Source: Acutalibacteraceae bacterium (lineage in GTDB: Bacteria; Bacillota; Clostridia; Oscillospirales; Acutalibacteraceae). From it: a stretch of DNA of 64,000 nucleotides. The notes below the pieces were generated by a model. It did not search any database and had not been told where the DNA came from. It worked only from the letters and a program-made list of their open reading frames with translations. Of the stretch, positions 7,034 to 57,618 are shown piece after piece. Location: positions 1,171 through 65,170 of the forward strand of contig JAZPZT010000004.1 in NCBI GenBank assembly GCA_045544815.1. Reading direction: 5' to 3'. The translations under genes were made by a program, and so were the position numbers. The stretch's first letter is position 1; every line of letters begins with the position of its first letter.

Positions 7034-7038
7034 GGTGG

Positions 7039-7077
7039 CAAAACAGAAAGAAACACCGTGGAAAACCACGGTGTTTC
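7039..7077 (-). terminator. Intrinsic terminator (minus strand) closing a short unit between mntP and the ABC-F gene
   Basis: A 12-bp stem GAAACACCGTGG/CCACGGTGTTTC has a 4-nt loop and is followed on the minus strand by TTTCTGTTTT. Confidence 0.7.
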
Positions 7078-7214
7078 GTGTATTATGTGCAATTTAGAAG
7101 TTTGTCTTGTCCAAAACGTATTCGATTTTGCCGTCGCAGACGGTGAAAGATGCGTCGTTTATCGGCGTACCATCCCCTTTTGTTGAAAATTCGGTACTCC
7201 TCCAAAAAGCAAGG

Positions 7215-7250
7215 AAATAGAATAAAAGCACCGAATTATCTATTCGGTGC
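7215..7250 (-). terminator. Intrinsic terminator after mntP
   Basis: The stem GCACCGAAT/ATTCGGTGC is followed by a U-rich tail on the minus strand, 14 nt past the mntP stop. Confidence 0.75.
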
Positions 7251-7263
7251 TTTTCACTCAGTT

Positions 7264-7833: not shown

Positions 7834-7852
7834 TGGCGGTCTCCTTTATGTA

Positions 7853-9025: not shown

Positions 9026-9027
9026 AA

Positions 9028-40239: not shown

Positions 40240-40268
40240 TTGCATTTTGTTTACAGATGTGCTATAAT
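40240..40268 (+). promoter_or_regulatory. Sigma-A promoter of the dGTPase-like gene
   Basis: TTGCAT, a 17-nt spacer, then TATAAT. Confidence 0.6.
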
Positions 40269-40290
40269 GAATGGAAAAGGAGGGATTATA

Positions 40291-41544
40291 ATGGCAAAAG
40301 AACAACTCTCCCCTGCCCTCTCCGCACGGATGGAGCAGGAGAAAAAGGCCCATTCCTATACCGATTTTTCCTTTCACGATGAGGCGGCGGTGCGCCGCTT
40401 TGCCACGGGTCGCCCTGCCTCGGTGTGGCGCCCTGCCTTTGCCAAAGATATCGACCGCATCCTCTATTCTCCCTACTACACCCGCTACACCGATAAGACG
40501 CAGGTGTTTGCCCTGACCAAAAACGACGACGTCACCCGCCGTGGTCTCCACGTGCAGTTGGTGTCCCGTATTGCCCGTACCATCGGCCGCGCCCTCAACC
40601 TCAACCTCGACCTCATCGAGGCGATTGCGCTGGGACACGATATCGGTCACACGCCCTTCGCCCATTGCGGCGAGGTGTACCTCAATCAGCTCTACAATGA
40701 GCATACGGGCCGCTATTTCAGCCACAACATTCACTCTGCCCGTGTGCTCAGCCAGATTTTCCCCATGAATCTGACCCTGCAGACCCTATCGGGCATCGCA
40801 GGCCACAACGGTGAAATCGAGCTGGCGGAGTATCATCCCGTGCCTATGGCCACCTTTGAGGAGTTTGAGGCGGAGCTGGAGAAGTGCTACACCATCCCCG
40901 GCTATTCCAACAAGATTCAGCCCTCTACGCTGGAGGGTAACGTGGTGCGTATTTCGGATATCATCGCCTATTTGGGCCGCGACCGTCAGGACGCCGCCCG
41001 TATGCAGATGGTGGAGGATGACTATTTCACCGCCGGTATCATCGGCACGGTCAACTCCGAAATCGTCAACAATCTGGTGGTCAACATCATCGAAAACAGC
41101 TATGGCAAGCCCTATATCATGATGGACGAGGAGCATTTCGGTGCCATCCAGACCTATAAGCGGGAAAACTACGCCATGATTTACGCCAACGAGCCCGGTC
41201 GTGTGATTTTGGACCGTGTGGTGAAATATATGATGGAGGAGATCTACGAGCAACTGCTGGACGACCTGCAAAACGATCGTCGGGACAGCCCCATCTTCCT
41301 ACACCATATCGACTACGTTAACGCCACCCACTATCACCGCGAGGTGCCCTACGAGCAGACCGAGCCCAACCAGATCATCGTGGACTACATCGCCAGTATG
41401 ACCGACGATTATCTCATCGAATTGCACCGCTACCTCTTCCCTGACAGCAACTACTACGTGGAGTATATGGGTTATTTTAACGATATCCACGAAAAACGCA
41501 CCCGCCTGCAAGGGCAAATCGGTATGGAGGACCAAGAAGACTAA
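40291..41544 (+). CDS. HD-domain dNTP triphosphohydrolase-like protein (dGTPase family)
   Basis: Motifs FAKDIDRILYSPYYTR, RGLHVQLVS and LGHDIGHTPFAH are present. The ATG at 40291 follows AAAGGAGGG. Confidence 0.85.
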   Translation: MAKEQLSPALSARMEQEKKAHSYTDFSFHDEAAVRRFATGRPASVWRPAFAKDIDRILYSPYYTRYTDKTQVFALTKNDDVTRRGLHVQLVSRIARTIGRALNLNLDLIEAIALGHDIGHTPFAHCGEVYLNQLYNEHTGRYFSHNIHSARVLSQIFPMNLTLQTLSGIAGHNGEIELAEYHPVPMATFEEFEAELEKCYTIPGYSNKIQPSTLEGNVVRISDIIAYLGRDRQDAARMQMVEDDYFTAGIIGTVNSEIVNNLVVNIIENSYGKPYIMMDEEHFGAIQTYKRENYAMIYANEPGRVILDRVVKYMMEEIYEQLLDDLQNDRRDSPIFLHHIDYVNATHYHREVPYEQTEPNQIIVDYIASMTDDYLIELHRYLFPDSNYYVEYMGYFNDIHEKRTRLQGQIGMEDQED

Positions 41545-41656: not shown

Positions 41657-43486
41657 TCATCCATCGGAGGGCTCGATTGCCTCAAACATAAAGGGATACT
41701 TCTTTTCGTTGAGATGGTCGTAACAGATGTTAAAATAGTTGAGAACGTCTTTCGTCATTTGCGCGTCATCACCATACGCCGACAAATTCATATTTTCATC
41801 GTAAAACGTCCTATAAGACATAATGACCGGAACCTTTTCCATAAGTTCGAGCTGGTACTGATAGAAGGGAGACAAGGGAACCTCGGCGGTTTCCAGTAAT
41901 TTGGGCACCACGTAATTCATACTGATGTAACCCAAATCTTCTGACGGCAGACCATAGTTGCTCCACATTACCATAGGGGTGCTTTTCAGCAGATAGGTCA
42001 GGTCCGCTTCCGAGATGGAGGGGTCTGCGATGTTTTTGGCAAAGGAGGGACCGTGATCGCCCAACATACATACGATAACCGGTTTGTCCACCGTCTCAAA
42101 GTAAGACAACAATTTCACCAATTCCTCATCGGAAAGCCGCAAAGAGGACAAATACTCGTTCACTTGATCGGTGTATTCGCCGAAATCATTGTTGACCTTT
42201 ACCGTATCCAACTCTTCCGGATTTTGCTCCCAGCCGCCGTGATTCTGGAAGGTGAGCAAATACATAAACTTAGGCTTTTCAGAGGGCTCTTCATACCACC
42301 GAATGAGATTCTTATAGGTGGACTCATCGGTGTTCGCACGGTTGCCGTAGCTCTCCAAGCCACTGAAATCTATATCAAAATACGCATGGTCAAAGCCAAG
42401 AGCCGGGTAGCTGTATTTGCGATTGTAGTTGGCCGAATTGGCGCAGTGGGCGGCATAGGTTTCGTATCCGTAGGACTCTAAAAGCGAAACCACACTGGCA
42501 TGCCCTTTCATATCCATGGACAAAAACGGCGTTTGGTTGGGAATCAAACTGGTGGATACACTGGTCAGCAATTCGTACTCGGAGCGATTGGTTCCACCGC
42601 CTTCGCCGGAGGCGACCACATATCCTTTGATGGCGTTTTCGATCCCATAATAGTTTGCCAGCGGAGAAAGGTTCGTATCCAAATCCACCACCTGCTCCAA
42701 ATCATAAAAACACTCGTTGAGAATCAACACGATATCGGGAAGCTCTTTTGCGGCAGGCGTTTCGGTTTGGTTGGCGAGAACGTCGTTGTAGACGTTGAGA
42801 ATGGTTTCTTCCGAGTAATTGTCATACGTTAGAGAAAACGTGTTCGCTTGAAAATGGGATTCCAACTGCAACGGCAAAAAACCGTATTCGCCGGCCGAAC
42901 TTGCCCAAGAAAAAACAACGGAGTTTTTCGGCTTAAAAGAGATATCCGAAAACACACCGCCATATACGTTGGCACCCAAGAGCAACAAGCAGACACCGGC
43001 TATGCCGAGCCGTTTTCTCCAAGAAGAAAAGATCGGTTTCGCATCGGTGATTTTCCAAGTAAAAATCACGATTGCGACACAAATCAGGAGGCATAGTAAA
43101 ATGGCGATGCTGTATTTATCCAGATGGAAACGATAGGAGGCAACGACATCCATAGCGGTGGCGGTGTTTTTCAGCAAATGCACGGTGAGCGGCGCACCGT
43201 GATACAGCAGTATGTAGTAATTGGCGATAGCCAAAACGGAAGAGATAATGCTCCACGTCAACAGAGCGGTATGCGGCTTGTTAAAGATAAACATCAGCAA
43301 AGCAACGATTAGCCAAAAAGACAGCAGATTCCACGCAAAGACACCTACGGTCATCTTAGCATTAAGAAAGGGGATTCGCGACACAGAAACCTGCAATTGC
43401 ATAAACGTGATAAATGCTACAAGCAGAGACGCTGCTCCTGAAATAAAATAGTTGGAGCGTACCACCGACAGTATTTTTTCTTTCAT
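41657..43486 (-). CDS. LtaS-type sulfatase-domain membrane protein (lipoteichoic acid synthase / phosphoglycerol transferase family)
   Basis: It has five N-terminal TM helices plus an extracellular alkaline-phosphatase-superfamily domain (LTFQNHGGWE, MLGDHGPSF). By eye it is AT-richer than its flanks. Confidence 0.78.
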   Translation of the reverse strand: MKEKILSVVRSNYFISGAASLLVAFITFMQLQVSVSRIPFLNAKMTVGVFAWNLLSFWLIVALLMFIFNKPHTALLTWSIISSVLAIANYYILLYHGAPLTVHLLKNTATAMDVVASYRFHLDKYSIAILLCLLICVAIVIFTWKITDAKPIFSSWRKRLGIAGVCLLLLGANVYGGVFSDISFKPKNSVVFSWASSAGEYGFLPLQLESHFQANTFSLTYDNYSEETILNVYNDVLANQTETPAAKELPDIVLILNECFYDLEQVVDLDTNLSPLANYYGIENAIKGYVVASGEGGGTNRSEYELLTSVSTSLIPNQTPFLSMDMKGHASVVSLLESYGYETYAAHCANSANYNRKYSYPALGFDHAYFDIDFSGLESYGNRANTDESTYKNLIRWYEEPSEKPKFMYLLTFQNHGGWEQNPEELDTVKVNNDFGEYTDQVNEYLSSLRLSDEELVKLLSYFETVDKPVIVCMLGDHGPSFAKNIADPSISEADLTYLLKSTPMVMWSNYGLPSEDLGYISMNYVVPKLLETAEVPLSPFYQYQLELMEKVPVIMSYRTFYDENMNLSAYGDDAQMTKDVLNYFNICYDHLNEKKYPFMFEAIEPSDG

Positions 43487-43762: not shown

Positions 43763-44662
43763 ATGAGATATTTGACCGTTCGCAGAGAAAAGAGTTTCGT
43801 GGCCTGTCTGGTGAAAAGCCACGTGTACATCGAGGACCCTTACTACGGCGACACCACCATCGGCGGCGTGCGCTGCCGCAAATTGGGCGACCTGAAAAAC
43901 GGCAGTGAAATGACCTTCACCATCGGTGACGAGGCGGCACGGGTGTACGTTATCTGCGACAAGCTGAGCAAGGATTTCTGCAACGATTTCTTCCTTGTGC
44001 CTGCAGGTAATTTTAACGTGCTTCTCGTGGGCAAGCACGAGATGAACCCCATCAGCGGCAACGCCTTCCGCTTCTACGGCAACGACCATCCCGAAGCACA
44101 GCAAAACCGCAAACGCGGCGGCCGTATCGGCCTGATCGTGCTGATCGTGGCGGCTGTGCTGGGATTTTTGATCGGCGTATTGAGCGGCATTATGAGCGCT
44201 ATGAACGAGGAGGCGCAACCTAAGACCTTCACCACGGGCGACATCACCATCACCCTGACCGACGACTTTGACGAGGGCGATATCGACGGCTACGACGCCG
44301 TGTGGGAGTCGTGGGAGGTGGCGGTCGTGGTGCTGGAAGAGCCCTTTGACACCCTGACGGAAGTGATGGAGGACCCTGCCGCCGCCACGGTGCGTGAGTT
44401 CGCTGAATTGCACCGTGACAGCAACGAAAAAACAGCGCCGATTGAGACGGAGGATGGTCTGACCCGCTATTGCTACGAGTGGACCGACGAGGAAAGCGGT
44501 GTGACCTATCGCTACTACACCTACCTGTACAAATCCGCCGACTCCTTTTGGATGGTACAGTTCTTTATCGACGCCGAGGACGCCGCGGAGTATCAGGACC
44601 TTATCCCCCAATGGGCGCAATCTGTGACCTTTGCGCAGGCGAGCACAGCCGTACATATTTAA
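43763..44662 (+). CDS. Hypothetical single-pass membrane protein, no family recognised
   Basis: It has a strong RBS (GAGGAGG) and a cytoplasmic beta-rich N-domain of about 120 aa. One TM segment (IGLIVLIVAAVLGFLIGVLSGIM) precedes an acidic outer domain of about 150 aa. It has its own terminator. Confidence 0.6.
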   Translation: MRYLTVRREKSFVACLVKSHVYIEDPYYGDTTIGGVRCRKLGDLKNGSEMTFTIGDEAARVYVICDKLSKDFCNDFFLVPAGNFNVLLVGKHEMNPISGNAFRFYGNDHPEAQQNRKRGGRIGLIVLIVAAVLGFLIGVLSGIMSAMNEEAQPKTFTTGDITITLTDDFDEGDIDGYDAVWESWEVAVVVLEEPFDTLTEVMEDPAAATVREFAELHRDSNEKTAPIETEDGLTRYCYEWTDEESGVTYRYYTYLYKSADSFWMVQFFIDAEDAAEYQDLIPQWAQSVTFAQASTAVHI

Positions 44663-44665: not shown

Positions 44666-44699
44666 AAAAGAGGACACTCGCAAAGGTGTCCTCTTTTTT
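44666..44699 (+). terminator. Intrinsic terminator after the hypothetical membrane protein
   Basis: The stem GAGGACAC/GTGTCCTC is followed by T6. Confidence 0.8.
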
Positions 44700-44712
44700 G
44701 CGTGCGAATTTC

Positions 44713-44741
44713 TTTACATCTGCCGTTAATTGTGGTATCCT
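44713..44741 (+). promoter_or_regulatory. Candidate promoter of the STAND gene
   Basis: TTTACA, a 17-nt spacer, then TATCCT with an upstream TG (extended -10). Confidence 0.4.
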
Positions 44742-44773
44742 CAACATATATCGATTGTAAGGAGTTGCCGTAT

Positions 44774-47700
44774 ATGACGACCAATCATTCCCACAGCGCC
44801 CCTCCCGTGATTCGTGTGTTTCTGTCCTCCACCTTTGCGGATATGGAGCGGGAACGCAGCTATTTCAACGAGGTGCTGTCACCCAAAATCAGCCGTATCT
44901 GCGCCGAGCGCGGCGTGTCTTTCTTCAGCGTGGACCTGCGCTGGGGTATCACCCACGAGGACCAGGTGAACGGTCAGGTATTACCCATCTGCTTGGGCGA
45001 AATCGACAAGTGCCGCCCCTATTTCATCGGCATCGTGGGCAACCGCTACGGCAGCGTGCTGGAGGCGGTGCCCGAGCATATCGCCCAGTCCATTCCGTGG
45101 CTTATGGGCAAAGAGGGGCATAGCATTACCGAGCTGGAAATGCTGTACGCCGTGCTGGACAAGGAAAAGGGCGATGGTTGCGCCGACTGCGCCTTCTATA
45201 TGCGCTCCGACCGTCTGTCCCGTGAGATGTACGGCACCGCCCTTGATGAGAGCGATGCCGCTCGCCGCCGTTTGGCGGACCTCAAGCGCCGCATTACCGA
45301 GGACGCAGACATCCCCTCCGCCGACTACGACAGCATGGAAGAGTTTGGCGAGATGGTCATACGCGACCTAATGCGCTGGCTGGACGAGCATTTTCCTGCC
45401 TCTGCGGACGTCAACCTCATCCGCCGCAAGTGGTACGACGGCGAACTGTTGCGCAATTATCTGCGCTCGCAACAAAACGAGCACTTCCTCGACACTTACA
45501 TAGCAGAGAGCAAAAAGCCCCTGCTGTTTTACGGCGACGGCGCCCGGGGAAAGACGGCGTTCCTCACTGCGTGGCAACCTGCCGAAGGGCACAAGATCGT
45601 GGTGAATATCGCCGCCGACGATCGCTTCTCCTACTGGCCTGCCTTGGTCCATCATTTGGCGTTGAGCATACGGGAACTGCAGCCCGACTGCGGCCTGCCC
45701 GAGGGGGTTGTTGCCGAAGACGGCGACGTCTTTTACACCAGCGACGAGGAAAAAGAGCGCTTCGGTCGGGCTTTTCTACGGTGGTTTGGCGGCCTGCGGC
45801 TGACACAGCCCGTCACCATCGTTATCAACGACCTAAACCTGCTGGAGGACGAGCAAAGCCGCCTGCTGTCCTGGCTGCCTGCGATGCCGCCTGCCGGCAT
45901 TCGTCTGATCGGCTCCACCAACGACGATGAGATGGTGCAGAACGCCTCTCTTATGGGCTGGAACGTGCGGGAGATGCCGCTGTTTGAGCCGCAGGACGCC
46001 GTCACCCTGGTCACCGACTATCTCCACGCCTGCGGCAAAAAACTGACGGAGGAGCAGTTAGGCCGCCTGATGCAATCGGTGTGTGCCCGTTATCCCGGTC
46101 AGTTGCGTTTCGTGGCGGCTTTTTTGGTGAATTTCGGTCGTTTCAACAGCTTGGATGAGCTCATCGACGCCATCGGTAGTTTCCGCCGTATCGATGAAAT
46201 GTACCGTTACGCCTACGATTTCCTGATGACGGAATACGAGCAACGCGAGCGCGAGGCAGTTCGTCTGGTGCTGGGTTTGGTGCGCGCTGCCACCTTCTCC
46301 CTCAACGAGCGGCTGTGCTATGAGTTGTGCCAGCGCAGCTATCAAGTGACCGCCATTGAATGGGCCCGTTGCTGCCGTGTTTTCGAGCAGTTCGGCATCA
46401 TTCAGGGTGACTATTGGAATCTCCGCAACGAGGAGATGCAGAAGTTCGTAGATCGGTTGCTGGACGCCGATGAATTGCGGCAGGCCCACACCGTTCTGGG
46501 CGATTATTTTCTGCAGGCGTTGCGCGACGACGCTGACGCCGAGGACGTGCGTACCGCCACCGCCTACGCCAAGGCGGTGTTGCTCCACTATCGCACCGCC
46601 GAGGCGTGGGACAAGCTGACCGACGCCCTTTCCGAGCATCGGATCCTGTGCCGTCTGTATAAGTTAGACTGGCGCTACGTCCGCGTGGGTTGGATGGCTC
46701 TGTTCCTCCATACCGATTGCGACATCCCCACCCTCTTGTTGGAGTTAGCGCGCCGTTACACGGCGCAGGGGGAGGAGCAGAACCACGCCATCGCCTTGCA
46801 GGTGGGCAGTCTGCTGACCGACCTCTGCTACGAGGAAGGCTACGAGGAAATGCGTCGGCTGCTGGGCGTGGCGGTCATTCCCTCCGCCCTGAATGCGGAT
46901 ATCGACCGTATGCTCAGCGACACCTTCACCCGCGCCTACAACGAGATGTGTAGCATGAAGGAACGGGGACAATACCGCGAGTTGCTGGCCTACGCGGACG
47001 CCTTGCAGGCGTCCTCCGCCGCCCTCAATGAAAAAGAGCTGTGTCAGCTCTACTTCTTCCGCGCAGACGCCGAGAGCAGGTTGCACCTTTATGAGGCGGC
47101 ACTGACCACGGTCAATGGCTATTACGAAACCGCCATCCGCACCGGCCTTTCCTACGAGATCATCCGTGCCCTGACCATTCGCGGCGAGGTGGTGTTCCGT
47201 CTGGACAACCGTGCGGATCGGGAAAAGGAATGTATAGCCATTCAGGAGCGGCTCATCCAGATGGCGCTGGCCAACGGTGATCTGCGCACCTATTTGTTTG
47301 CTCGCAATATGCTGGGTATGTGTCTGGCTCACGTCAACGGCTTCGTGGCCGCCGGCGTTGTCTTTGACTCGGTGTTTGCCCAGTGGACCAAACTGGGCAA
47401 CGTGCAGGAGATGGGCTCTATCATCATTAACAAGAGTAACGCCTTTTACATCAACGGCAAATACGCTCAGGCCCTGGATCTGGTCAAGGGCTATTACGAG
47501 ACTGTCTGCAACCTACCACAGATGCAGCTCAACTGCACGCTGCTCCTGGGTCATATGGGGCATTACGCCACGGCACTCAAGGATTACGACACTGCGGAGC
47601 AGTATCTGCTGGAGTCCCTCCGCCGCGCCAAGGAGTCGGGCTACGAGTCTGCCCGACTCAACGCCTACAAGGGACTGGCAAAGATGTATCGAGCCAGCGA

Positions 47701-49642
47701 CCGCTGGATGAAGGCGGTGGAGGTCTGGGAGGAGCAGATGGAATTCCTCTGGAGCCGTGGCGAGTACAACAGCCTCTTGTCCATCCTCAACGACGCCATC
47801 GTCGCTCTGCACCACTACAGCTACGCCAAGCGAGCCAAAATCATGGAGGAGCAGTGGCGTGAGCGCTTTGCCACCATCGAGGGAGGCAGCGAAATCTTTG
47901 AAAAGAGCCGCCGTGCCGACGAAACCGTGGATACGGTGCAGGTGGACGGATTCCGCGAGCAGATTATTATGGCCAAGGGTGAGGGTAACGTCCAAAAGCA
48001 GGCGGAACTGCTATGCCAGTGGGCGGTGGCCATCAAGGATTCCGCTCCCGACGAGGCGGTATCCCATCTGCTGGAGGCGGCAGATTTGTACCGCAGTTTG
48101 GGGCTTGTCGCTCGTGTGTTTAGCAGTGTGCAGGCCACGCTGGGCATTCTGATTCGCAAGGGTAAAGTGCGTAATGAGGCGCTGTATCAGCAGGTGATGG
48201 CCGGCATTGACGATGCGGTTATACCCGAGATCGTCCGTCTGTGGACGGAATTGGCCGATCACAAGCCGGAGGAGGACGCCACCGTCTATCCCAAACTGGC
48301 CGCTTTGATGACCAAGGGAGCCGTCTACGAGCCGCTGATGGCACTATTCGTGACGGATATGAACGCCATCCTGATGTACCTCTGCACCGCCGACGAACTG
48401 ATTCAGTTGGTGGAGAGTTTCTCTCACAGTGTGCGCGACGATGTATGCGATGGTTTCGACCACGCCATGTTTGACGACGAGGGCCGTGGCACCTCCGACC
48501 TAAAGGTGGATTTCCTCAGCCCTGCCGCTACGGAAAAACTGCGCTTTTACGAGAAATGCGTGGCGTTTTTGCAGCATTTCGGCCACCTGAATGCGGCGGC
48601 AATGGCAGGCAACATCGCCCTCATTTTCCGCCGCCGTAAGGACAAGGAAAAGACGCTGTACTACCACAGCCTGTCCGCCAAAGCCTTCGAAAAGGCAAAA
48701 AAGCCGGAGGACGCCCTCATCGAGATGATGAATCTGGCCACTGCCTATCGTGAATTTGACGATATCGACGGCTCCATCCGGCTGTTGCGCGAGGCGCTGA
48801 CCCTCGCCGGCGAATGGGGCGAGAAGAAGATGGAAGCGCTGATCGCGGGTAATCTGGCCTCGTGTCTGGTGCAGTTCAATCCGACGGATAACAAAGAGGA
48901 GATTCTGCGCTATTTCACCTTGGAGGAGGCCTATTTCCGCGCCACCGCCAACGACCGTGATTTGGTTATTTCACTGGTGAATCAGATGATTTACCTCCAC
49001 GATAAGGCGGATGTGAGCGAATGGCAGGGCAAGCTGCAGGAGGCCATGGCGCTGGTGAACAAGCACCATTTTGACGATTTCCGCACGGTGCTGAGTCGCT
49101 TAGAGTGGATGGCCAGCCAAAAGACGGCACAGCCTGCCGCTGCCGAGAATCGGGGCGAGGACGATTTCCGCGAAAAGGTGAAGGAACTGCTGGCCGCCGT
49201 TGGCAATTATCAGATTGCCAACATCGATTGTACCAACGACACCTATCGCGCCATCTGCGCACCCATAGAGAACGGTATGCCGGGCGAAACACGGCTGTTT
49301 TTCTTCTACCGCTATGACAGCGCCGGTGTGATTGGCGCTGTGGGCGTGTATCAGCCGCCCATGCGCCTGCAGGATTTAGAAAAGGTCACCGCCTATATGA
49401 ACTGGTGGAACAACCTCAACGAGTATGAAATCCACTACGACGCCGAGCAACAGCTATTCCGCGCGGACGCCCGTTTGGTGGCGCCCGATTGGGGCAAAAT
49501 GGCGTTGCGCCTGCGCCGATTCCATAAACTGTGGGAGGCGGACAAGGTCAACCTTATGTCTGTGATCTTGGGCATTGTGGACGTAGATTTAGCCCAGGGT
49601 GCCAAGCTCCGTGTGATGGACGAGACCACCGACACCGAATAA
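44774..49642 (+). CDS. 1,622-aa protein: DUF4062-like N-domain, P-loop STAND-type NTPase, about 1,000 aa of TPR-like helical repeats, and a distinct C-terminal domain
   Basis: The ATG at 44774 lies 9 nt after AAGGAG. The N-terminus reads VIRVFLSSTFADMERERSYF...VDLRWGI...IGIVGNRYG. Walker A is GDGARGKT (45533-45556) and Walker B is IVIND (45818-45832). The TPR-like helices are long, and the last roughly 145 aa are non-repetitive. Confidence 0.8.
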   Translation: MTTNHSHSAPPVIRVFLSSTFADMERERSYFNEVLSPKISRICAERGVSFFSVDLRWGITHEDQVNGQVLPICLGEIDKCRPYFIGIVGNRYGSVLEAVPEHIAQSIPWLMGKEGHSITELEMLYAVLDKEKGDGCADCAFYMRSDRLSREMYGTALDESDAARRRLADLKRRITEDADIPSADYDSMEEFGEMVIRDLMRWLDEHFPASADVNLIRRKWYDGELLRNYLRSQQNEHFLDTYIAESKKPLLFYGDGARGKTAFLTAWQPAEGHKIVVNIAADDRFSYWPALVHHLALSIRELQPDCGLPEGVVAEDGDVFYTSDEEKERFGRAFLRWFGGLRLTQPVTIVINDLNLLEDEQSRLLSWLPAMPPAGIRLIGSTNDDEMVQNASLMGWNVREMPLFEPQDAVTLVTDYLHACGKKLTEEQLGRLMQSVCARYPGQLRFVAAFLVNFGRFNSLDELIDAIGSFRRIDEMYRYAYDFLMTEYEQREREAVRLVLGLVRAATFSLNERLCYELCQRSYQVTAIEWARCCRVFEQFGIIQGDYWNLRNEEMQKFVDRLLDADELRQAHTVLGDYFLQALRDDADAEDVRTATAYAKAVLLHYRTAEAWDKLTDALSEHRILCRLYKLDWRYVRVGWMALFLHTDCDIPTLLLELARRYTAQGEEQNHAIALQVGSLLTDLCYEEGYEEMRRLLGVAVIPSALNADIDRMLSDTFTRAYNEMCSMKERGQYRELLAYADALQASSAALNEKELCQLYFFRADAESRLHLYEAALTTVNGYYETAIRTGLSYEIIRALTIRGEVVFRLDNRADREKECIAIQERLIQMALANGDLRTYLFARNMLGMCLAHVNGFVAAGVVFDSVFAQWTKLGNVQEMGSIIINKSNAFYINGKYAQALDLVKGYYETVCNLPQMQLNCTLLLGHMGHYATALKDYDTAEQYLLESLRRAKESGYESARLNAYKGLAKMYRASDRWMKAVEVWEEQMEFLWSRGEYNSLLSILNDAIVALHHYSYAKRAKIMEEQWRERFATIEGGSEIFEKSRRADETVDTVQVDGFREQIIMAKGEGNVQKQAELLCQWAVAIKDSAPDEAVSHLLEAADLYRSLGLVARVFSSVQATLGILIRKGKVRNEALYQQVMAGIDDAVIPEIVRLWTELADHKPEEDATVYPKLAALMTKGAVYEPLMALFVTDMNAILMYLCTADELIQLVESFSHSVRDDVCDGFDHAMFDDEGRGTSDLKVDFLSPAATEKLRFYEKCVAFLQHFGHLNAAAMAGNIALIFRRRKDKEKTLYYHSLSAKAFEKAKKPEDALIEMMNLATAYREFDDIDGSIRLLREALTLAGEWGEKKMEALIAGNLASCLVQFNPTDNKEEILRYFTLEEAYFRATANDRDLVISLVNQMIYLHDKADVSEWQGKLQEAMALVNKHHFDDFRTVLSRLEWMASQKTAQPAAAENRGEDDFREKVKELLAAVGNYQIANIDCTNDTYRAICAPIENGMPGETRLFFFYRYDSAGVIGAVGVYQPPMRLQDLEKVTAYMNWWNNLNEYEIHYDAEQQLFRADARLVAPDWGKMALRLRRFHKLWEADKVNLMSVILGIVDVDLAQGAKLRVMDETTDTE

Positions 49643-49646
49643 ACGT

Positions 49647-49685
49647 AAAAAGGACAACCGCTTTTGTGGTTGTCCTTTTTCTTTT
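49647..49685 (+). terminator. Intrinsic terminator after the STAND gene
   Basis: AAAAAGGACAACCGC-TTTT-GTGGTTGTCCTTTTT. It is near-identical to the terminator at 41547-41581. Confidence 0.85.
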
Positions 49686-49850
49686 GAATCGTTGCGGCGT
49701 ATCGGCAAAAAAGATTTCTGTTGAAACGCAGGCGATTTTCGCCCTTTTTTTCACGGAAAAAGCAATAAAATGACGGTATTCACGATGAAAAACAGCCAAT
49801 TTTTTGCATCCTTTTTAGCTGAAATCATATATCTTTTTTCAGTTAAGGTA

Positions 49851-49879
49851 TTGAAATTTCTCGCATAAGGTGTTATTAT
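49851..49879 (+). promoter_or_regulatory. Candidate promoter of the glycopolymer locus
   Basis: TTGAAA, a 17-nt spacer, then TATTAT in an AT-rich intergenic region. It predicts a leader of about 90 nt. Confidence 0.45.
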
Positions 49880-49973
49880 GTTAATTAATATTATATAATG
49901 CGTGCGTTGCGCGCGTGTATAAAATAAAATACAACGACAATCGTCGAATTTTGATATGACAAAGGAGCACAAA

Positions 49974-50735
49974 ATGGATAAGAAAGAGAATTTTTCCAAC
50001 GACATTTACGTAGTGGATCTCGCCCACGTAGTAAAGGTGGTGTGGCAACACATTCGTGCTGTGGTGATTGCCAGCTTATGCACCGCCGTGATCGGCTTTT
50101 TGCTGGCCGCCGTGATTATCAAACCGACCTACTCCTCCTCCGTGATGCTGTACGTTAACAACAGCTCGTTCAACGTGGGAGATTTGGGATTCAGTATCAG
50201 CTCCTCCGAGCTGACCGCTGCACAGAGTTTGGCCAAGACCTATACGGTGTTGCTGAAAAACCGCACCACACTGGAGCGATTGATCGAAGAGACCGAGATC
50301 GAATACACTTGGGAAGAACTCTACGATATGATCGAGTCCAGTCCCGTCAATGAGACCGAGGTCATGCAGGTGACCGTCACCTGCCACAACCCCTACGAGG
50401 CACAACGCATCGCCAAAGGCATTGAAGTGGTGCTCCCCAAAGTGGTTGCCGAGATCATCGAGGGTGCTACGATGGAGGTCGTCGACTTTGCCTACGTAGA
50501 CACCGACAAGGTTGGGCCCAGCGTTACATTGTACACGGCGGTCGGCCTGGTCGTCGGCCTGCTGCTGTCGGTGGCGGTGCTGATCGTGCTGGCCCTGATG
50601 GACAACACCGTCCACGACGAAGAGTACGTCATCCGCACCTTCGGCTATCCCATTCTGGCACAGGTGCCCAACCTCAACGAAAGCTCGCCCAAGCGATACG
50701 GCTATACCAGCCCCCCGCGACATAGTGCCCAATAA
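49974..50735 (+). CDS. Wzz-family polysaccharide chain-length determinant (no kinase partner seen)
   Basis: It has an N-terminal TM, a Wzz-like periplasmic region (IIKPTYSSSVMLYVNN) and a C-terminal TM. The ATG at 49974 lies 6 nt after AAAGGAG. Confidence 0.8.
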   Translation: MDKKENFSNDIYVVDLAHVVKVVWQHIRAVVIASLCTAVIGFLLAAVIIKPTYSSSVMLYVNNSSFNVGDLGFSISSSELTAAQSLAKTYTVLLKNRTTLERLIEETEIEYTWEELYDMIESSPVNETEVMQVTVTCHNPYEAQRIAKGIEVVLPKVVAEIIEGATMEVVDFAYVDTDKVGPSVTLYTAVGLVVGLLLSVAVLIVLALMDNTVHDEEYVIRTFGYPILAQVPNLNESSPKRYGYTSPPRHSAQ

Positions 50736-50786
50736 CACGCAAACACCCTGCCGACCGAAAATTCTCCGTCGAAAGGAACGAAGCAT

Positions 50787-51788
50787 ATGAACGGACACGA
50801 ACAGCGTCAAAGCACACAAAAAAACACGGTGAAAATCCTCATAGTTCTATTGGTCGCCGTGCTGTTGTTCTCCACGGTAATGTTTCTGCTCAGTGTATGG
50901 GATAAGTTTCACGGCCACTACACCGGGAGCGAACTGCCCACTGAGCACACCCTGACGTATAACGGTGTGGACTACACCCTGCGAGAGGGTGTCGAGACAC
51001 TGCTGGTACTGGGTCTGGACACCTATACCGACACCGGATTGGATTCCTACAACAACAATAAGCAGGCCGATTTCCTGCTTCTGTTGGTGATGGACACCGA
51101 AAACGACACCTTCAAAGCCATCCACATCAATCGCGACACCATCGCCAACGTGGACGTATTGGGCGTCTCCGGCGATCGCATCGACACGGTGCGCCAGCAG
51201 ATCGCTCTGGCTCACACCTACGGCAACGGTCGCGAGGTCAGTTGCCGCAATACAGCCGATGCGGTATCCGACTTACTGAAAGGCGTCCCCATTGATCATT
51301 ACGTATCCGTGGCTATGGACGCCGTGCCCGTCTACAACGACCTGGTGGGCGGTGTCACGCTGGAGATGTTGGACGATTTCTCCTCTTTCTATCCCGAGAT
51401 GAAAGAGGGCGAAACCGTCACCCTCACCGGTGAGCAGGCATTCGCCTACGTCCGCGCCCGCAAGGGCTTGGAGGATCCCAGCAACAGCCGCCGTATGGCC
51501 CGACAGAAACAATATCTGGAGGCACTGTACGAGCGCACCAATCAACGCGTGCAGGAGCAAGACAACTTTGTCGCGCAAGCCGCACTGGCCATGAGCGATT
51601 ATCTGGTGTCCGACTGTTCCGGCAATAAGCTGGAGGGCATCATGAGCCAATATGCCAAAAAGCCGCTGGACGCCATCCTCTCCTTTGACGGAGAACTGGT
51701 GACGGGCGACGTGTTTATGGAGTTTTACCCCGACGAGGATGACCTGATGCAAACGGTCATTGAGTGTTTCTATCAACCTGTCGAATGA
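50787..51788 (+). CDS. LytR-CpsA-Psr (LCP) family glycopolymer-to-peptidoglycan phosphotransferase
   Basis: It has an N-terminal TM and an LCP core (LLVLGLDTY...ADFLLLLVMD...IHINRDT). Confidence 0.85.
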   Translation: MNGHEQRQSTQKNTVKILIVLLVAVLLFSTVMFLLSVWDKFHGHYTGSELPTEHTLTYNGVDYTLREGVETLLVLGLDTYTDTGLDSYNNNKQADFLLLLVMDTENDTFKAIHINRDTIANVDVLGVSGDRIDTVRQQIALAHTYGNGREVSCRNTADAVSDLLKGVPIDHYVSVAMDAVPVYNDLVGGVTLEMLDDFSSFYPEMKEGETVTLTGEQAFAYVRARKGLEDPSNSRRMARQKQYLEALYERTNQRVQEQDNFVAQAALAMSDYLVSDCSGNKLEGIMSQYAKKPLDAILSFDGELVTGDVFMEFYPDEDDLMQTVIECFYQPVE

Positions 51789-51819
51789 TTCTGCAATAGC
51801 AGGGAAAAGAAGTGAAATC

Positions 51820-52506
51820 GTGATTAACAATCCGAACCAAGAAAAAGAGAACGTCTCTGTCATTCTCCCCTACGCCAACGACGAGGAGTTTTACGTGGAA
51901 GAATTGGGCACCGTCGAAGAAAAACCGGTGTACACCTTTCTGAAGCGGACGTTCGATATCGTTTTTGCACTGATTCTGTTGGTGTTGCTGGCCGTGCCGA
52001 TGCTGGTGGTTGCCATCATCGTAAAGCTGACCACCAAAGGCTCGGTGCTGTATTATCAGGCACGGCTGGGTCTCAACGGCAAGCCTTTCAACATCATCAA
52101 ATTCCGCACGATGTATGAGGACGCGGAGGCAGACGGCCTGCGCTGGTCCATGGGCGACGATGACCCCCGTATCACCCCTGTTGGTCGCGTGCTGCGCAAG
52201 ACGCACTTGGATGAGCTGCCGCAGTTGTGGTGCATCCTCATCGGCGATATGAGTGTGGTGGGTCCTCGTCCCGAGCGCCCCGAGTATTACGAGCGATTCG
52301 AGCAATATATCCACGGTTTCCACGAGCGACTGAAAGTGAAGCCCGGCATGACCGGCCTGGCACAGGTGCGCGGTGGCTATTACCTAAAACCGGAAGAGAA
52401 AATCCTGTATGATATCGAATACATAAAAACCCGTTCTTTGGGATTGGAACTGCGCATTTTGTTAGAAACCGTTAAGGTGGTCTTCTGTTGTGAAGGCGTG
52501 AAATGA
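51820..52506 (+). CDS. Small polyprenyl-phosphate sugar-1-phosphate transferase (bacterial sugar transferase family, initiating enzyme)
   Basis: Motifs KRTFDIVFALILL, PFNIIKFRTM, DELPQL, SVVGPRP and GMTGLAQV are present. The start is uncertain: GTG at 51820 or TTG at 51760. Confidence 0.85.
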   Translation: MINNPNQEKENVSVILPYANDEEFYVEELGTVEEKPVYTFLKRTFDIVFALILLVLLAVPMLVVAIIVKLTTKGSVLYYQARLGLNGKPFNIIKFRTMYEDAEADGLRWSMGDDDPRITPVGRVLRKTHLDELPQLWCILIGDMSVVGPRPERPEYYERFEQYIHGFHERLKVKPGMTGLAQVRGGYYLKPEEKILYDIEYIKTRSLGLELRILLETVKVVFCCEGVK

Positions 52507-52519
52507 GGACGTCGACTGT

Positions 52520-53854
52520 ATGATAACCATTCGTTCAAAAACGCTGTTTTTGTGTGCCTGCTTGATCGAAGCCTGTTGGCTTTTGGTGGCGCAGATGCTC
52601 AACGCGACAGCTATATTGCTCCCCTGCCTGCTCTGTTTTTTGCTGCTGGTGGGCTGGGCGGCAATTAAAAACGCGGCGATGCCGGTGATTATGTTCTTTC
52701 TCCCCTTTGCGAAGCTACTGAAACTGCGCCCCGGCACCATTTCGTTTTTTACCATAGCCCTGCTGCTTGCCTATGGCATATGCACCATCATCGGCAGCCG
52801 ACAAGTAAAGGTGCTGCATCTCATTCCTGCCCTGCTGTTGGTGGTGATGACGCTGATCGTTAAGGCTGCATACGGATACGTTCCGACCAATTCTTACATT
52901 CTGTTTGCCGTCACCCTGCTGTTGGTTCCTTACCTTTCCCATGAGATGGATGGAACATACGATTTCTACTGGCTGACCGTATGCTTTTCGCTGGGTATCT
53001 GCCTGGCGGCCATTACCGCACAATTTATGACGGTGTTCCCCACCATCAGCCGCTATATTACGATCGACGTAAGTACGACCCTGTCTTTAGCGCGTCGTTC
53101 CGGCTACATGGGCGACCCCAACTTCTATGCCACGCACATCACCACAGCATTGAGCGGCATACTGCTCATACTGCTGAACAATCCCAAGCGTAGCAGACTG
53201 TTCGTGCTGATTCCGCTGGCATTTCTGTTGCTGTATTGTGGTTTGCTGTCGATATCCAAGTCTTTTATGCTCATCTGTGTGTGCCTGCTCCTTTTGTGGG
53301 TGATGATGCTGTTGTTGCAAAGAGGCAAAGTGTCGATCAAAGCGGCCATCATTGTGACGCTCATCATCGCCTTTGCGTTTTTGTTATCCACCACCGTATT
53401 TACGGATATGCTGGATAAATTGTTCTTCCGTTTTAGCCAAGACACGAACTTGTCGGATTTCACCACCGGCCGTACCGAGGTGTGGGATTCCTACATCCAA
53501 GCCATATTCAGCGACGTAAAGCTACTGCTGTTTGGACAAGGTTGCACCAATATGCTCCTTGGTGACAAAGCCACGCACAACACCTTACTACAGTGTTTTT
53601 ACCAATTAGGCTTGATTGGCTGCGCAATATTAATTCTGTGGCTCGTGTATTTCTACCAAACCCTGCTGAGAGGCACGCGCTTGCAGCGGCATCAAGCGGT
53701 GCGGCTGGCTATCGTGCTCATCGGCACTTTCGGCCCCTGGGTCGCGTTGGACTACTTATTCTTTGACGAGTTCTTCCTCCTGCCCATCTACGTATGCATA
53801 GCGGTGCGCTTTTTGCACCAACAGCAGGAGACGGAAAAGCCCCTGCTCAATTAG
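52520..53854 (+). CDS. O-antigen polymerase/ligase-like (Wzy-type) polytopic membrane protein
   Basis: It has about 10-12 TM segments with a large loop containing the HNTLLQ motif region. It is AT-richer, as is usual for wzy genes. Confidence 0.7.
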   Translation: MITIRSKTLFLCACLIEACWLLVAQMLNATAILLPCLLCFLLLVGWAAIKNAAMPVIMFFLPFAKLLKLRPGTISFFTIALLLAYGICTIIGSRQVKVLHLIPALLLVVMTLIVKAAYGYVPTNSYILFAVTLLLVPYLSHEMDGTYDFYWLTVCFSLGICLAAITAQFMTVFPTISRYITIDVSTTLSLARRSGYMGDPNFYATHITTALSGILLILLNNPKRSRLFVLIPLAFLLLYCGLLSISKSFMLICVCLLLLWVMMLLLQRGKVSIKAAIIVTLIIAFAFLLSTTVFTDMLDKLFFRFSQDTNLSDFTTGRTEVWDSYIQAIFSDVKLLLFGQGCTNMLLGDKATHNTLLQCFYQLGLIGCAILILWLVYFYQTLLRGTRLQRHQAVRLAIVLIGTFGPWVALDYLFFDEFFLLPIYVCIAVRFLHQQQETEKPLLN

Positions 53855-53875
53855 CAAACAAGAAAGGAGGTGCCG

Positions 53876-54667
53876 ATGATGCATTCCACTGCCGACAACC
53901 ACATTCCGGCAACGGTTTCCATCATTATGCCGGCCTACAACGCCGCCGCTTATATCGAAGAGGCGATTCACTCCGTGATGAGCCAAACCTATAGCGCATG
54001 GCGGCTGCTGGTGCTGGACGACGGCTCCTCCGACCACACGATAGACATCGTGAGGCGGTTGGCAGAACAGGACGCGCGCATTACGCTATCGTGTAACCCA
54101 CAAAATTGCGGTGCGGCCCGTACCCGCAACCGCGGATTGGACCTGTGCGACGATGGATTCGTTGCCTTCTTAGACAGTGACGATCGGTGGCACCCCGAAA
54201 AATTAGCCACGCAGATACGCTTGGCCCATCAAAGCGGCGCGGATATCGTGTACACCTCCTACGCCATCATAGATTGCGACGGAAAGCCCTGCCGGCATCC
54301 CTACATCGTGCCGGAGCACACCGGCTTTGACCATATGCTCAAGGAAAACGTCATCGGCTGCTCCACCGTACTGCTGTCTCCGACGGCGGCGCGAAAATAC
54401 CGCTTCCCCGTTGGTTTCTATCACGAAGACTATTGCCTGTGGCTGGATATGCTGCAGGACGGCTGTCAAGCGGTAGGCTCCTCCCAGGTATTAACCGAGT
54501 GGCGCCTTATCAACGGATCCCGCTCCTTTGATAAGCGTAACGGTGTGCGCCAACGCTGGCGTATCTACCGCGAACACCTACACCTGCCGCTTTGGAAATG
54601 TGTGAGTTCTTTCATCGGCTACGCCGTAAGCGGCATCAAAAAATACTACAAGAAGCACAAGGAATGA
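53876..54667 (+). CDS. Family 2 glycosyltransferase
   Basis: VSIIMPAYNAAAYIEEAI..., the LDDGSSD and FLDSDD (DxD) motifs are present. Confidence 0.88.
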   Translation: MMHSTADNHIPATVSIIMPAYNAAAYIEEAIHSVMSQTYSAWRLLVLDDGSSDHTIDIVRRLAEQDARITLSCNPQNCGAARTRNRGLDLCDDGFVAFLDSDDRWHPEKLATQIRLAHQSGADIVYTSYAIIDCDGKPCRHPYIVPEHTGFDHMLKENVIGCSTVLLSPTAARKYRFPVGFYHEDYCLWLDMLQDGCQAVGSSQVLTEWRLINGSRSFDKRNGVRQRWRIYREHLHLPLWKCVSSFIGYAVSGIKKYYKKHKE

Positions 54668-54672
54668 AATCC

Positions 54673-55545
54673 ATGACTGAAAACGACCGGCAACACGCCA
54701 CCCTTGCCCAGCACCAAGCGGCGCTGCTACGCTTGCTTCAGGAGTTCGATCGGGTGTGTAAGGAACTGAATATTCCCTACGTGCTGTATGCCGGCACGCT
54801 GCTGGGTGCCGTGCGGCACGAGGGGTTTATCCCGTGGGACGACGATCTGGACGTGCTGATGTTGCGTGAGGATTATAACCGTTTTTTGGCGGAGGCGCCT
54901 GCGGTGCTGGACACCGACATCTTTTATCTGCAAAAAGAATTTTCCGAACACTGGCCGCTGTTCTTTTCCAAATTGCGGCTCAACGGCACCGCCTGCTTGG
55001 AAAAAATCCACCCCAAAGACCCACAGATGCATCAGGGCATCTATATCGACATCTTCCCCTGCGACGACGCCCGCCCCACCGCATGGGGACGGCGAATACA
55101 GTTCGCCGCCTCTAAGGTGATCATCGCCAAGGCGCTGGATAAGCGAGGCTACGACACCGACAGCGCCGCAAAAAAGGTGTTCATCGCCCTATGCCGCTTG
55201 CTTCCGCAAAAGCCGTTTCTCAAAACGGTCCAACGGGGAAAAGCGGACGGCGACACGGTGCACACCTTCCTGGCCGGCGCACGGAGATATGAAAAAAACG
55301 TGATCCCTCGCCGCTTTTTGACCGAGCGCTGCGACGTCATCTTCGAGGGTGGCTCCTATCCTGCCCCTGCCGATTACGACTCCTGCTTACATAGGCTGTA
55401 CGGCGATTATATGCAATTGCCGCCGCCGGAGGAACGGGTGTGCAAGGAACACGCCATCTTGGTAGATACCGAACGTTCCTATGAAGAATACGCCGACTAT
55501 CGCGCGGACATGACCTTTGAGGTCTACACCCGCAGTATTCGATAA
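54673..55545 (+). CDS. LicD-family phosphotransferase
   Basis: Motifs YAGTLLGAVRHEGFIPWDDDLDVLM and IDIFPCD are present. The start is the ATG at 54673, or at 54664 overlapping the upstream stop. Confidence 0.85.
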   Translation: MTENDRQHATLAQHQAALLRLLQEFDRVCKELNIPYVLYAGTLLGAVRHEGFIPWDDDLDVLMLREDYNRFLAEAPAVLDTDIFYLQKEFSEHWPLFFSKLRLNGTACLEKIHPKDPQMHQGIYIDIFPCDDARPTAWGRRIQFAASKVIIAKALDKRGYDTDSAAKKVFIALCRLLPQKPFLKTVQRGKADGDTVHTFLAGARRYEKNVIPRRFLTERCDVIFEGGSYPAPADYDSCLHRLYGDYMQLPPPEERVCKEHAILVDTERSYEEYADYRADMTFEVYTRSIR

Positions 55546-55574
55546 AAAACTAACCCACAAAGAAGGTGTGCCTG

Positions 55575-56378
55575 ATGAGGCTACAGGTTTTGGCGGTGAC
55601 CATGCACCGCGAGGACTTGTCCATCGCCGAACAAATGAATATACGCTGCGATGCGCTGATTGCCAATCAGGCCGACCGAGAGGAAACCGTTATCTGCGAT
55701 ACCGTACACGGCAGATGGCAGATGATTACCACCGCCACACGGGGCGTAGGACGCAACCGTAACGTCGGCCTTGCGGCCGCGGACGGCGACATTCTCCTGT
55801 TGTCGGATGACGACGTGGTGTATCGTGACGATATGCCGACCGAGGTGCTCAAAGCCTTTGCAGACTGTCTGCAGGCGGACGTGATGATATTCGGCATGGA
55901 TATGGTCCGTGACGGACAGGTATTCGAAACGCGTTGCGAACCACACCGCCGCGTGCGTATCTGGAACGCGATGAAATACGGCACCTATCGCATCGCCATT
56001 CGCCGCGAGGCGTTAGAGCGCGCACACATACGATTTCACGAATCTTTCGGCGGCGGATGCCCCTTCAGCGCCGGCGAAGACAGTTTGTTTATAAAGGGTT
56101 GTTTAGACAACCATTTGCGCATTTATACCCATCCCTACGTATTGGGAACCTGTTGTAAAGATAGTTCCTCCTGGTTCGTAGGCTACAACGATAAGTATTT
56201 TTACGACAAAGGGGTGCTGGTACGGCACCTGTTTCCCCGCACGGCCTATCTGATGGCGCTGTATTTCGCCGTCCGCTTCAAGCGAAACACCCACGTAGGT
56301 GTGTGGCGGCGACTGCAACTGGTGTATGCCGGTGTCCGTGGCGGGAAACAGATGGCCCCGTACCCGGGAACGCTATGA
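55575..56378 (+). CDS. GT-A fold glycosyltransferase (family uncertain)
   Basis: It has TATRGVGRNRNVGL and a LLSDDD DxD-like motif. The product is 267 aa. Confidence 0.65.
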   Translation: MRLQVLAVTMHREDLSIAEQMNIRCDALIANQADREETVICDTVHGRWQMITTATRGVGRNRNVGLAAADGDILLLSDDDVVYRDDMPTEVLKAFADCLQADVMIFGMDMVRDGQVFETRCEPHRRVRIWNAMKYGTYRIAIRREALERAHIRFHESFGGGCPFSAGEDSLFIKGCLDNHLRIYTHPYVLGTCCKDSSSWFVGYNDKYFYDKGVLVRHLFPRTAYLMALYFAVRFKRNTHVGVWRRLQLVYAGVRGGKQMAPYPGTL

Positions 56379-57544: not shown

Positions 57545-57618
57545 TCTTGTTTCCCACGGGGGCGTCCCCGTTAAGTATATTTGGTTTCCAATTTTATTAT
57601 AAAAAGGAGAGAGGACAC

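Follow-up and report, generated by a model that had tools for sequence, protein, structure and literature searches.

A giant DUF4062-STAND-TPR protein of gut Clostridia as a candidate NAD+-depleting, NLR-like anti-phage sensor

What is the function of a giant gene that stands alone between core-genome genes and a cell-surface polysaccharide locus? The question is raised by a 64,000-nucleotide stretch of DNA (hereafter the window) from an Acutalibacteraceae bacterium (GenBank assembly GCA_045544815.1, contig JAZPZT010000004.1, positions 1,171 to 65,170, forward strand). In the window a single open reading frame at 44774-49642 on the + strand runs from an ATG at 44774 to a stop codon ending at 49642 and encodes a protein of 1,622 amino acids (aa). 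A first-pass annotation of the sequence had proposed an undescribed NLR-type defence or signalling system with a DUF4062-like head as its output module. According to our analysis the gene probably encodes a single-protein, NLR-like anti-phage sensor that would kill or arrest its own cell by destroying nicotinamide adenine dinucleotide (NAD+). For this reading the domain identities, the catalytic and P-loop residues, the accessory status of the gene, part of its defence context and its divergence pattern were observed, while the individual steps of the mechanism are proposed by analogy.

The open reading frame, the ribosome-binding site, the promoter-like site, the terminators and the sequence motifs of the first-pass annotation were all found in place on re-reading. 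The coding sequence has about 100 full-length homologues, which are 1,600-1,690 aa long and share 30-79% identity with the protein at 99-100% coverage. From the N- to the C-terminus it comprises a NIR (DUF4062) domain, a STAND NTPase module, TPR-like repeats and a C-terminal domain, all given below with their positions on the + strand.

The N-terminal domain (aa 12-205, 44807-45388) is a predicted TIR-like NADase domain of the DUF4062 type, identified by Pfam PF13271 and by a profile match to the NIR domain of human TEP1. The Pfam profile was covered completely at aa 14-126 with 49 bits, compared to a gathering score of 24.7, in agreement with the DUF4062 signature recognised in the first-pass annotation, and about 100 homologues carry this domain as a precomputed annotation. 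The TEP1 NIR structure (PDB 11gz_A) was matched over positions 12-205 with E = 9.6e-30 by a profile built from 33 family members. The protein belongs to the DUF4062/NIR domain family. Using the alignment with 11gz_A, which has a single offset of 893, we mapped the TEP1 residues named by Osinski et al. (R908, R954, R976 and E1008) onto the protein. The catalytic E1008 corresponds to E122 and R976 to R91, both of which are invariant in all 33 members; R954 corresponds to Q68, a position that holds Gln or Lys in the family and is not conserved. The family alignment further contains invariant W57, E62, Q64 and E122...Y125, which correspond to the Evangelion motifs "Q/W/E" and "E-Y". As the catalytic Glu of the domain we predict E122, whose published equivalents are TEP1 E1008, PsAvs2 E108 and KpSwz E97 (2026 NIR preprints). 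Across the family the NIR core has a mean identity of 80% compared to about 42% for the whole protein, with omega (the ratio of nonsynonymous to synonymous substitution rates) at roughly 0.06-0.09. The invariance of E122 and R91 together with this very strong purifying selection on the NIR core argues for retained enzymology.

The nucleotide-binding domain of a STAND NTPase follows at aa 241-420 (45494-46033), as judged from its motifs, its homology to the relative P0113 and Foldseek comparisons. The Walker A motif GDGARGKT (aa 254-261) and the Walker B motif IVIND (aa 349-353) had already been noted in the first-pass annotation, and their key residues G254, G259, K260, T261 and D353 are invariant in the 33 family members. 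In the Pfam scan AAA_16 reached 22.8 bits, below its cut-off of 32.6, and NACHT (PF05729) gave no hit at E ≤ 1, so that the protein itself stays below the Pfam NACHT threshold. A sequence-profile search of this region against the PDB matched no solved NTPase, and the NTPase was therefore classed by transitive homology and predicted fold. Residues 12-506 align with P0113, which is NACHT-positive, at 30% identity (E = 9e-58) with P-loop and Walker B in register, and the P0113 region aligned to the NTPase scores 36.5 bits for NACHT, above threshold. An AlphaFold2 (AF2) model of aa 1-680 was obtained with a predicted local distance difference test score (pLDDT) of 81.6 and a predicted template-modelling score (pTM) of 0.71. 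Its top Foldseek neighbours were Avs3, CED-4, MalT, RPP1, Apaf-1, ZAR1 and Roq1 with E-values of 2e-8 to 1e-5; the global template-modelling (TM) scores were low, since the model spans several domains. From the homology to P0113 and the Foldseek neighbours of the model, the module is best described as a divergent, NACHT-related STAND NTPase of nephrocystin-3-like type. With its P-loop motifs and its fold of nucleotide-binding, helical and winged-helix domains, the protein belongs to the STAND superfamily. The helical and winged-helix domains lie at aa 421-660 (46034-46753), where pLDDT is about 80-95 and which the Foldseek STAND alignments cover. A match to pPIWI_RE_Z at aa 559-632 (23.9 bits) was below its cut-off and falls into the helical part of the module, such that it was regarded as non-specific. 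Matches to YfbR-like, Vta1_C and FimS/FimV were sub-threshold and discarded, and the NCBIfam scan of the protein returned noise-level matches only.

Residues ~660 to 1440, about 800 aa, consist of TPR-like helical repeats. TPR_12 was matched with 37.1 bits (cut-off 30.1), and the family profile matched TPR structures of LGN/Pins and kinesin light chain with E-values from 3e-10 to 1e-6. These matches define a TPR-A block at aa 661-1050 (46754-47923), which is the fastest-diverging part of the protein and a candidate ligand-recognition surface. Compared to close relatives, TPR-A retains 45-50% aa identity at a rough omega of 0.39-0.46, while the other regions of useful length have omega values of 0.06-0.27; its mean identity across the family is 33%. 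From this divergence TPR-A is likely the sensor surface. A conserved NIR effector combined with a variable TPR-A sensor is the pattern expected of an immune receptor. The middle helical region that follows (aa 1051-1250, 47924-48523) has 28% mean identity and matches designed helical repeats only, and weakly. The TPR-B block (aa 1251-1440, 48524-49093) is well conserved at 50% mean identity and contains a TPR_10 match at aa 1318-1344. Within this otherwise helical block lies an invariant basic stretch, R1286-R1288 (48629-48637; consensus IFRRRKDKEKT); outside the NIR domain few features are as strongly conserved.

The last ~180 aa (aa 1441-1622, 49094-49639) form a non-repeat alpha/beta domain, which AF2 predicted confidently (pLDDT 88.6, pTM 0.80) and in which W1544, N1546, Y1551, D1590 and K1611 are invariant. 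The repeats and the non-repeat C-terminal domain of the first-pass annotation are thus corroborated by the TPR_12 score and the AF2 model, respectively. The C-terminal domain had no Pfam match. An exhaustive hidden Markov model (HMM) search of 1.84 billion representative proteins retrieved 42 matches, always at the C-terminus; all full-length matches belong to the family of ~1,600-aa proteins, and the shorter ones are probably fragments. Because all 42 matches lie at the C-terminus of that family, the domain is regarded as private to it. The top Foldseek matches, all weak, came consistently from type III secretion chaperones, with ExsC, CesT, SicP and SigE recurring, and from a YbjN-like protein; the best E-value was 8.7e-3 (TM-scores 0.40/0.48), and a viral structure library gave no informative fold match. 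The order of helix, beta-sheet, helix, beta-hairpin and helix in the C-terminal domain resembles that of ExsC, CesT, SicP, SigE, SchA and YbjN-like proteins. At E-values no better than 9e-3, TM-scores of 0.4-0.5 and ~10% identity, this likeness is one of fold level and may be convergent or spurious.

Three preprints of 2026 describe what such an N-terminal domain can do. DUF4062 was identified as a NADase of TIR-like type both in Swarozyc, a system activated by portal, and in TEP1 (Osinski et al., 10.64898/2026.05.01.722283), and likewise in the Evangelion systems (Ibarra-Chavez et al., 10.64898/2026.06.25.731849). It was renamed NIR in a study in which PsAvs2, a DUF4062-STAND-TPR protein, was found to defend by depleting NAD+ in a Glu-dependent manner once it senses terminase (Le Mouellic et al., 10.64898/2026.09.04.749371). 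Altogether, the domain depletes NAD+ in PsAvs2, Vulcan, Vesta, Swarozyc and Evangelion, and mutation of the Glu abolishes defence (2026 preprints). The first-pass annotation had called the system undescribed and had stated that no bacterial DUF4062-headed STAND protein had an experimentally assigned function. Both statements are superseded by PsAvs2, which is published as an anti-phage, NAD+-depleting protein of this architecture (10.64898/2026.09.04.749371). The structural part of the proposal, i.e. a solitary DUF4062-STAND-TPR protein whose head is the output module, is in agreement with the Pfam results, the TEP1 profile match and the STAND neighbours in Foldseek; the profile searches it had recommended as a check recovered both the DUF4062 and the STAND relationship.

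Like PsAvs2 (Pseudomonas chlororaphis WP_273864396.1), the giant protein is encoded by a single gene and has the order DUF4062/NIR with catalytic Glu, STAND and TPR-type sensor; by analogy its output would also be the splitting of NAD+ into ADP-ribose plus nicotinamide. Compared by description, it differs from PsAvs2 by its nephrocystin-3-like NTPase, its much longer repeats and its private C-terminal domain. The giant protein occurs in gut Clostridia whereas PsAvs2 is from a proteobacterium, where the trigger is a phage terminase. The giant protein is not in the Avs1-5 families as modelled by PADLOC. It would accordingly be a protein that works like PsAvs2, as far as the analogy holds, without belonging to its family. 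The NIR-STAND-TPR anti-phage architecture as such is already known from PsAvs2 and no longer surprising, and the giant gene is most likely a suicide switch set off by phage, of a type whose first description dates from 2026.

From these systems the following mechanism can be proposed. In the resting cell the protein would be an auto-inhibited monomer, by analogy with PsAvs2, Avs3/4, Apaf-1 and the TIR/NIR NADases. During infection a phage-derived protein would bind to the C-terminal sensor, for which TPR-A (aa 661-1050) is the likeliest contact, possibly assisted by the C-terminal domain. The NACHT-like STAND NTPase would then bind ATP and the protein would oligomerise, which would bring the N-terminal NIR/DUF4062 domains together and render them active. 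The clustered NIR domains would hydrolyse NAD+ in an E122-dependent manner, and the resulting NAD+ depletion may arrest growth and abort the infection.

An anti-phage gene and a housekeeping gene should differ in how they are distributed, and we found the giant gene to be accessory, patchy and variably located. Named homologues come from gut or rumen metagenome-assembled genomes (MAGs) of Clostridia, Oscillospiraceae, Ruminococcus or Eubacteriales, where they are labelled only "DUF4062 domain-containing protein". An alignment-based scan of 185,579 species-representative genomes found full-length relatives in at least ~16 of them, while a single-protein scan of representative genomes found none. 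Among the matches listed, more than 500 further proteins share only the DUF4062 and NTPase head; they come from phyla that include Chloroflexota, Planctomycetota and Acidobacteriota, often with several copies in one genome.

At the locus itself, a 5.25-kb module (44701-49953, + strand) is absent from the equivalent junction of a related strain (L090; 90% identity in Wzz, 88% in LCP): blastn homology ends at 44700 and resumes at 49954. L090 carries sigma-factor genes upstream of Wzz, and past the terminator of its copy of the upstream 299-aa gene its sequence is unrelated to the window. With another relative (L081), DNA homology ends at 49684. On contigs of close relatives the flanking HD gene is 93% and 86% identical and a Cys/Met enzyme 97% identical at the protein level, compared to only 74% and 59% for the giant gene, and in L083 the orientation of the giant gene relative to HD is reversed. 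The synonymous divergence dS with respect to L081 is 0.9 for the giant gene and the 299-aa gene and 0.45 for HD. Since this is about a twofold difference, the block of these two genes has a history distinct from that of its flank. A universally conserved, syntenic housekeeping gene, which the first-pass annotation had named as the outcome that would speak against its proposal, is ruled out by the rarity among the matches listed, the variable presence and ten non-syntenic contexts; the presence/absence comparison that it had called for yielded a gene neither universal nor syntenic and missing at the L090 junction.

The ten sampled contexts of the family are all different and have no common partner gene. 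Two of them directly adjoin known defence systems, a sample too small for statistics: in L083 a Shedu system and a type IIS (FokI-type) restriction-modification system lie beside the homologue, and in L086 McrBC. For NIR genes as a whole the published share lying close to a defence system is 20%, compared to 3.9% in the background. Two or three further contexts have candidates nearby (WYL/DUF1643/DUF3846, TIR_2-FtsK, dGTPase-like). The island of L083 (positions 1-9500, beside the 59% homologue) combines defence and mobile-element genes. Beside SduA_C of Shedu type and a FokI-type endonuclease accompanied by two methyltransferases, it contains a primase-like DUF927 gene, DUF1643 and DUF3846 in two copies, of which the last three are also present upstream in L081.

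The absence of a constant neighbour bears on a very unlikely alternative, in which the NIR domain produces a signalling nucleotide, e.g. a cyclic ADP-ribose isomer as made by the Thoeris TIR, that activates an effector encoded elsewhere. Some TIR domains do yield signalling molecules, the authors of the NIR work speculate likewise for some NIR domains (2026 preprint), and the lack of conservation at the position of TEP1 R908 implies that substrate handling may differ. However, in the ten contexts there is no conserved neighbour gene to act as receptor or effector, and all characterised NIR domains give only ADP-ribose and nicotinamide.

The mobile-element genes in turn raise the idea of a system in conflict with non-phage invaders, e.g. 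conjugative elements or plasmids, or of a selfish, addiction-like toxic module. The close homologues in L081 and L083 adjoin such genes (DUF927 primase-like, DUF1643, DUF3846, WYL), as this scenario would have it. Yet searches of plasmid and viral contig collections found no copies, an antitoxin-like partner is absent, and phage proteins are what triggers every NIR system characterised so far, which makes it improbable to a high degree.

Several observations weigh against the NAD+-depleting anti-phage sensor itself. Regarding the enzyme, TEP1 R908 corresponds to A22, which is Ala or Ser in the family and not conserved; the AF2 confidence of the NIR domain is moderate (pLDDT ~60-79); and human NPHP3, NWD1 and NWD2 had no NADase activity in vitro (2026 NIR preprints). 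The closest recognisable relatives of the giant protein are nephrocystin-3-like. In a scan with PADLOC-DB v2 none of the defence models fitted the protein; no Avs model appeared at E ≤ 1, and the matches to pPIWI_RE_Z and TPR that did appear were weak. The omega values are rough because dS is near saturation, and since none of them exceeds 1, positive selection is not demonstrated. About half of the ten contexts (at least five) hold only metabolic, housekeeping or cell-surface genes. No family copies were found in phage, plasmid or IMG/VR collections, and the gene has a GC content of 58% and a GC content at third codon positions (GC3) of 76%, the same as host core genes; together these give no direct sign of mobility. 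The matching GC and GC3 rule out a recent foreign origin as far as composition is concerned and indicate a gene long resident in the lineage.

Part of these observations would be accommodated by a STAND signalling or scaffold protein outside immunity that senses an endogenous cue (stress, development, cell-surface status) and in which the NIR domain is a protein-interaction module or a regulated consumer of NAD(P)+ and not a suicide effector, a role also suspected for eukaryotic NPHP3, NWD1 and NWD2. The nephrocystin-3-like relatives fit this picture, given that human NPHP3, NWD1 and NWD2 lack detectable NADase activity, as do the contexts free of defence genes, many of which contain giant surface proteins or polysaccharide loci. 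The host-like composition and the tight conservation of length and architecture (1,600-1,690 aa) down to 30% identity point in the same direction. Such a protein is nevertheless hard to reconcile with an invariant catalytic Glu and R91 under very strong purifying selection on the NIR core, with a gene that is rare among the matches listed, variably present and non-syntenic, with two contexts embedded in defence islands, and with the lack of a DNA-binding or other output domain in the giant protein. We consider this explanation unlikely and favour the anti-phage sensor.

How the protein relates to its nearest relatives can be specified further. Bacterial nephrocystin-3-like DUF4062-NACHT-TPR proteins (P0112, P0113, P0117) are homologous to it over aa 12-640 with 25-31% identity and E-values down to 1e-89. 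These bacterial proteins, NPHP3 and the giant protein alike have DUF4062, then a P-loop NTPase, then repeats of TPR_12/TPR_10 type. The nephrocystin-3-like proteins exceed the Pfam NACHT threshold and match NPHP3-specific helical/TPR models, while the giant protein does neither; they also lack its C-terminal domain, are 1,000-1,400 aa long and, among the matches listed, frequently occur in several copies per genome in Chloroflexota, Planctomycetota and Acidobacteriota. Families of paralogues of these genes were seen within individual genomes of Anaerolineaceae and of other environmental bacteria, e.g. L028, L031 and L050 on contig CAUVYA020000002.1 and L018, L042, L051, L061 and L068 in MAG CBDUXL01, whereas the Clostridia family is single-copy.

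For the individual modules the best comparisons lie elsewhere. Among solved structures the N-terminal domain is best matched by the NIR domain of human TEP1 (11gz_A), an established NAD(P)ase of the vault particle that also adjoins a NACHT ATPase. TEP1 differs in having TROVE and WD40 domains and an extended BB loop and in being a eukaryotic protein and part of a ribonucleoprotein. With Avs3/Avs4, Apaf-1, CED-4, plant NLR resistosomes and MalT the module shares the NTPase/helical/winged-helix fold, the best match being Avs3 (8dgc) with E = 2e-8. Avs3/Avs4 and other STAND proteins also follow the same logic of effector, switch and repeat sensor, but the effector is a nuclease, CARD or TIR domain in Avs3/Avs4, Apaf-1, CED-4 and plant NLRs and a NIR domain in the giant protein. 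Swarozyc, Evangelion, Vulcan and Vesta, most of them single-gene systems, have the NIR effector with its catalytic Glu in common with it. They contain no NTPase switch, their sensing part is an auxiliary stalk of helices, a set of HEAT repeats or a small domain for ligand binding, and their proteins are much smaller and often carried on mobile elements.

Judged from sequence comparison, what is new here is the nephrocystin-3-like NTPase lineage, the unusually long sensor with its conserved TPR-B and private C-terminal domain, and the restriction to gut Clostridia. If the anti-phage reading were confirmed, the NIR NADase immune module would extend to obligately anaerobic gut and rumen Clostridia, a group with few tested defence systems. 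The known STAND sensors would gain one with a domain that occurs in no other protein family, and the nephrocystin-3-type NIR-NACHT-TPR architecture of animals would have a counterpart in bacteria. For annotation, the "DUF4062 domain-containing proteins" of this family could be relabelled as candidate NAD+-depleting, NLR-like defence proteins, which PADLOC models miss. A bolder proposition, which we regard as rather doubtful, is that the family is a distinct NLR lineage of gut Clostridia in which the private, chaperone-like C-terminal domain and the hypervariable TPR-A sense a phage- or envelope-derived class of ligands outside those of the known Avs and bNACHT proteins. Were it true, the family would be a tractable model for the NIR domains of eukaryotic NPHP3, NWD1 and NWD2, because it would be the closest prokaryotic nephrocystin-3-type relative of full architecture that keeps a (predicted) intact catalytic site.

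The gene appears to be transcribed on its own. Strong terminators flank it on both sides, such that it looks like a self-contained transcription unit, as the first-pass annotation had argued. The left one (44666-44699, + strand, -18.5 kcal/mol, z = -4.99) serves the 299-aa membrane-protein gene upstream as its intrinsic terminator and marks the left edge of the module. The right one (49647-49680, -22.5 kcal/mol, z = -7.1) ends the giant gene and is bidirectional, having been detected on both strands. For each of them, 0 of 200 shuffled sequences folded as well. The ribosome-binding site AAGGAG was read from the sequence at 44759-44764 (+ strand), 9 nt before the ATG. An upstream GTG at 44702 was rejected as start codon since it lies within the promoter-like site and right behind the preceding terminator, which leaves 44774 as the start; the equivalent Met is also the start in the aligned homologues. 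The promoter-like site (44713-44741, + strand) is a sigma-70-like TTTACA-17-TATCCT with a TG extension, a pattern match from a consensus scan. Since it matches at 9 of 12 positions and such sites are no more frequent in the region than by chance (7 compared to 4.4 ± 2.1 in shuffled sequences), it is no more than a plausible promoter.

Upstream of the giant gene lie core genes (DnaE, CysS, PolA, GlgB/C, MetA) and downstream a Wzz/LCP/Wzy/GT2 polysaccharide locus, which agrees with the earlier placement of the gene at a boundary between core genome and cell-surface functions. An HD/HD_assoc gene at 40240-41544 (+ strand) scores 153 bits on the PADLOC dGTPase model and may encode either Dgt with a housekeeping role or a defence protein that depletes dNTPs. 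In all close relatives it flanks the giant gene as a conserved neighbour (86-93% aa identity). As a partner it was rejected, being a flank whose spacing and orientation with respect to the giant gene vary among strains. The multi-pass membrane gene at 41657-43486 (- strand), which resembles sulfatases and lipoteichoic acid (LTA) synthases, has a clearly foreign composition (GC 46.6%, GC3 58.7%, compared to ~57% and ~75% in its neighbours). L081-L083 lack it in the interval from HD to the giant gene, and it looks like a separate recent insertion into the same variable spot.

The gene directly upstream (43763-44662, + strand) encodes the 299-aa single-pass membrane protein, which has no family match. 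It accompanies the giant gene in L081/L082 (75% identity, dS ~0.9). In L090 it is present without the giant gene and inverted, and it is not beside any of the more distant family members. It was discarded as an obligate partner, occurring with the giant gene only in the closest relatives and alone in L090.

Surface functions recur around the family. In L085, L087, L088, L095 and L096 the homologues adjoin predicted surface proteins of 900-1,900 aa (dockerin, Flg_new, cadherin-like, PA14/RicinB, SLH), and these giant neighbours echo the surface-polysaccharide neighbour in the window. The polysaccharide locus at 49956-58000 (Wzz, LCP, Bac_transf, Wzy, GT2) itself varies among related strains: L090-L093 have no equivalent of its Bac_transf gene (51760-52506), and identity in the Wzy region is only 76% at the DNA level. 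Between the terminator of the giant gene and this locus lies an AT-rich intergenic region of 270 nt (49685-49955). It contains a second, small terminator-like hairpin at 49731-49743 and, at 49851-49879, a promoter-like site that matches at 10 of 12 positions with a TG extension and presumably serves the Wzz operon.

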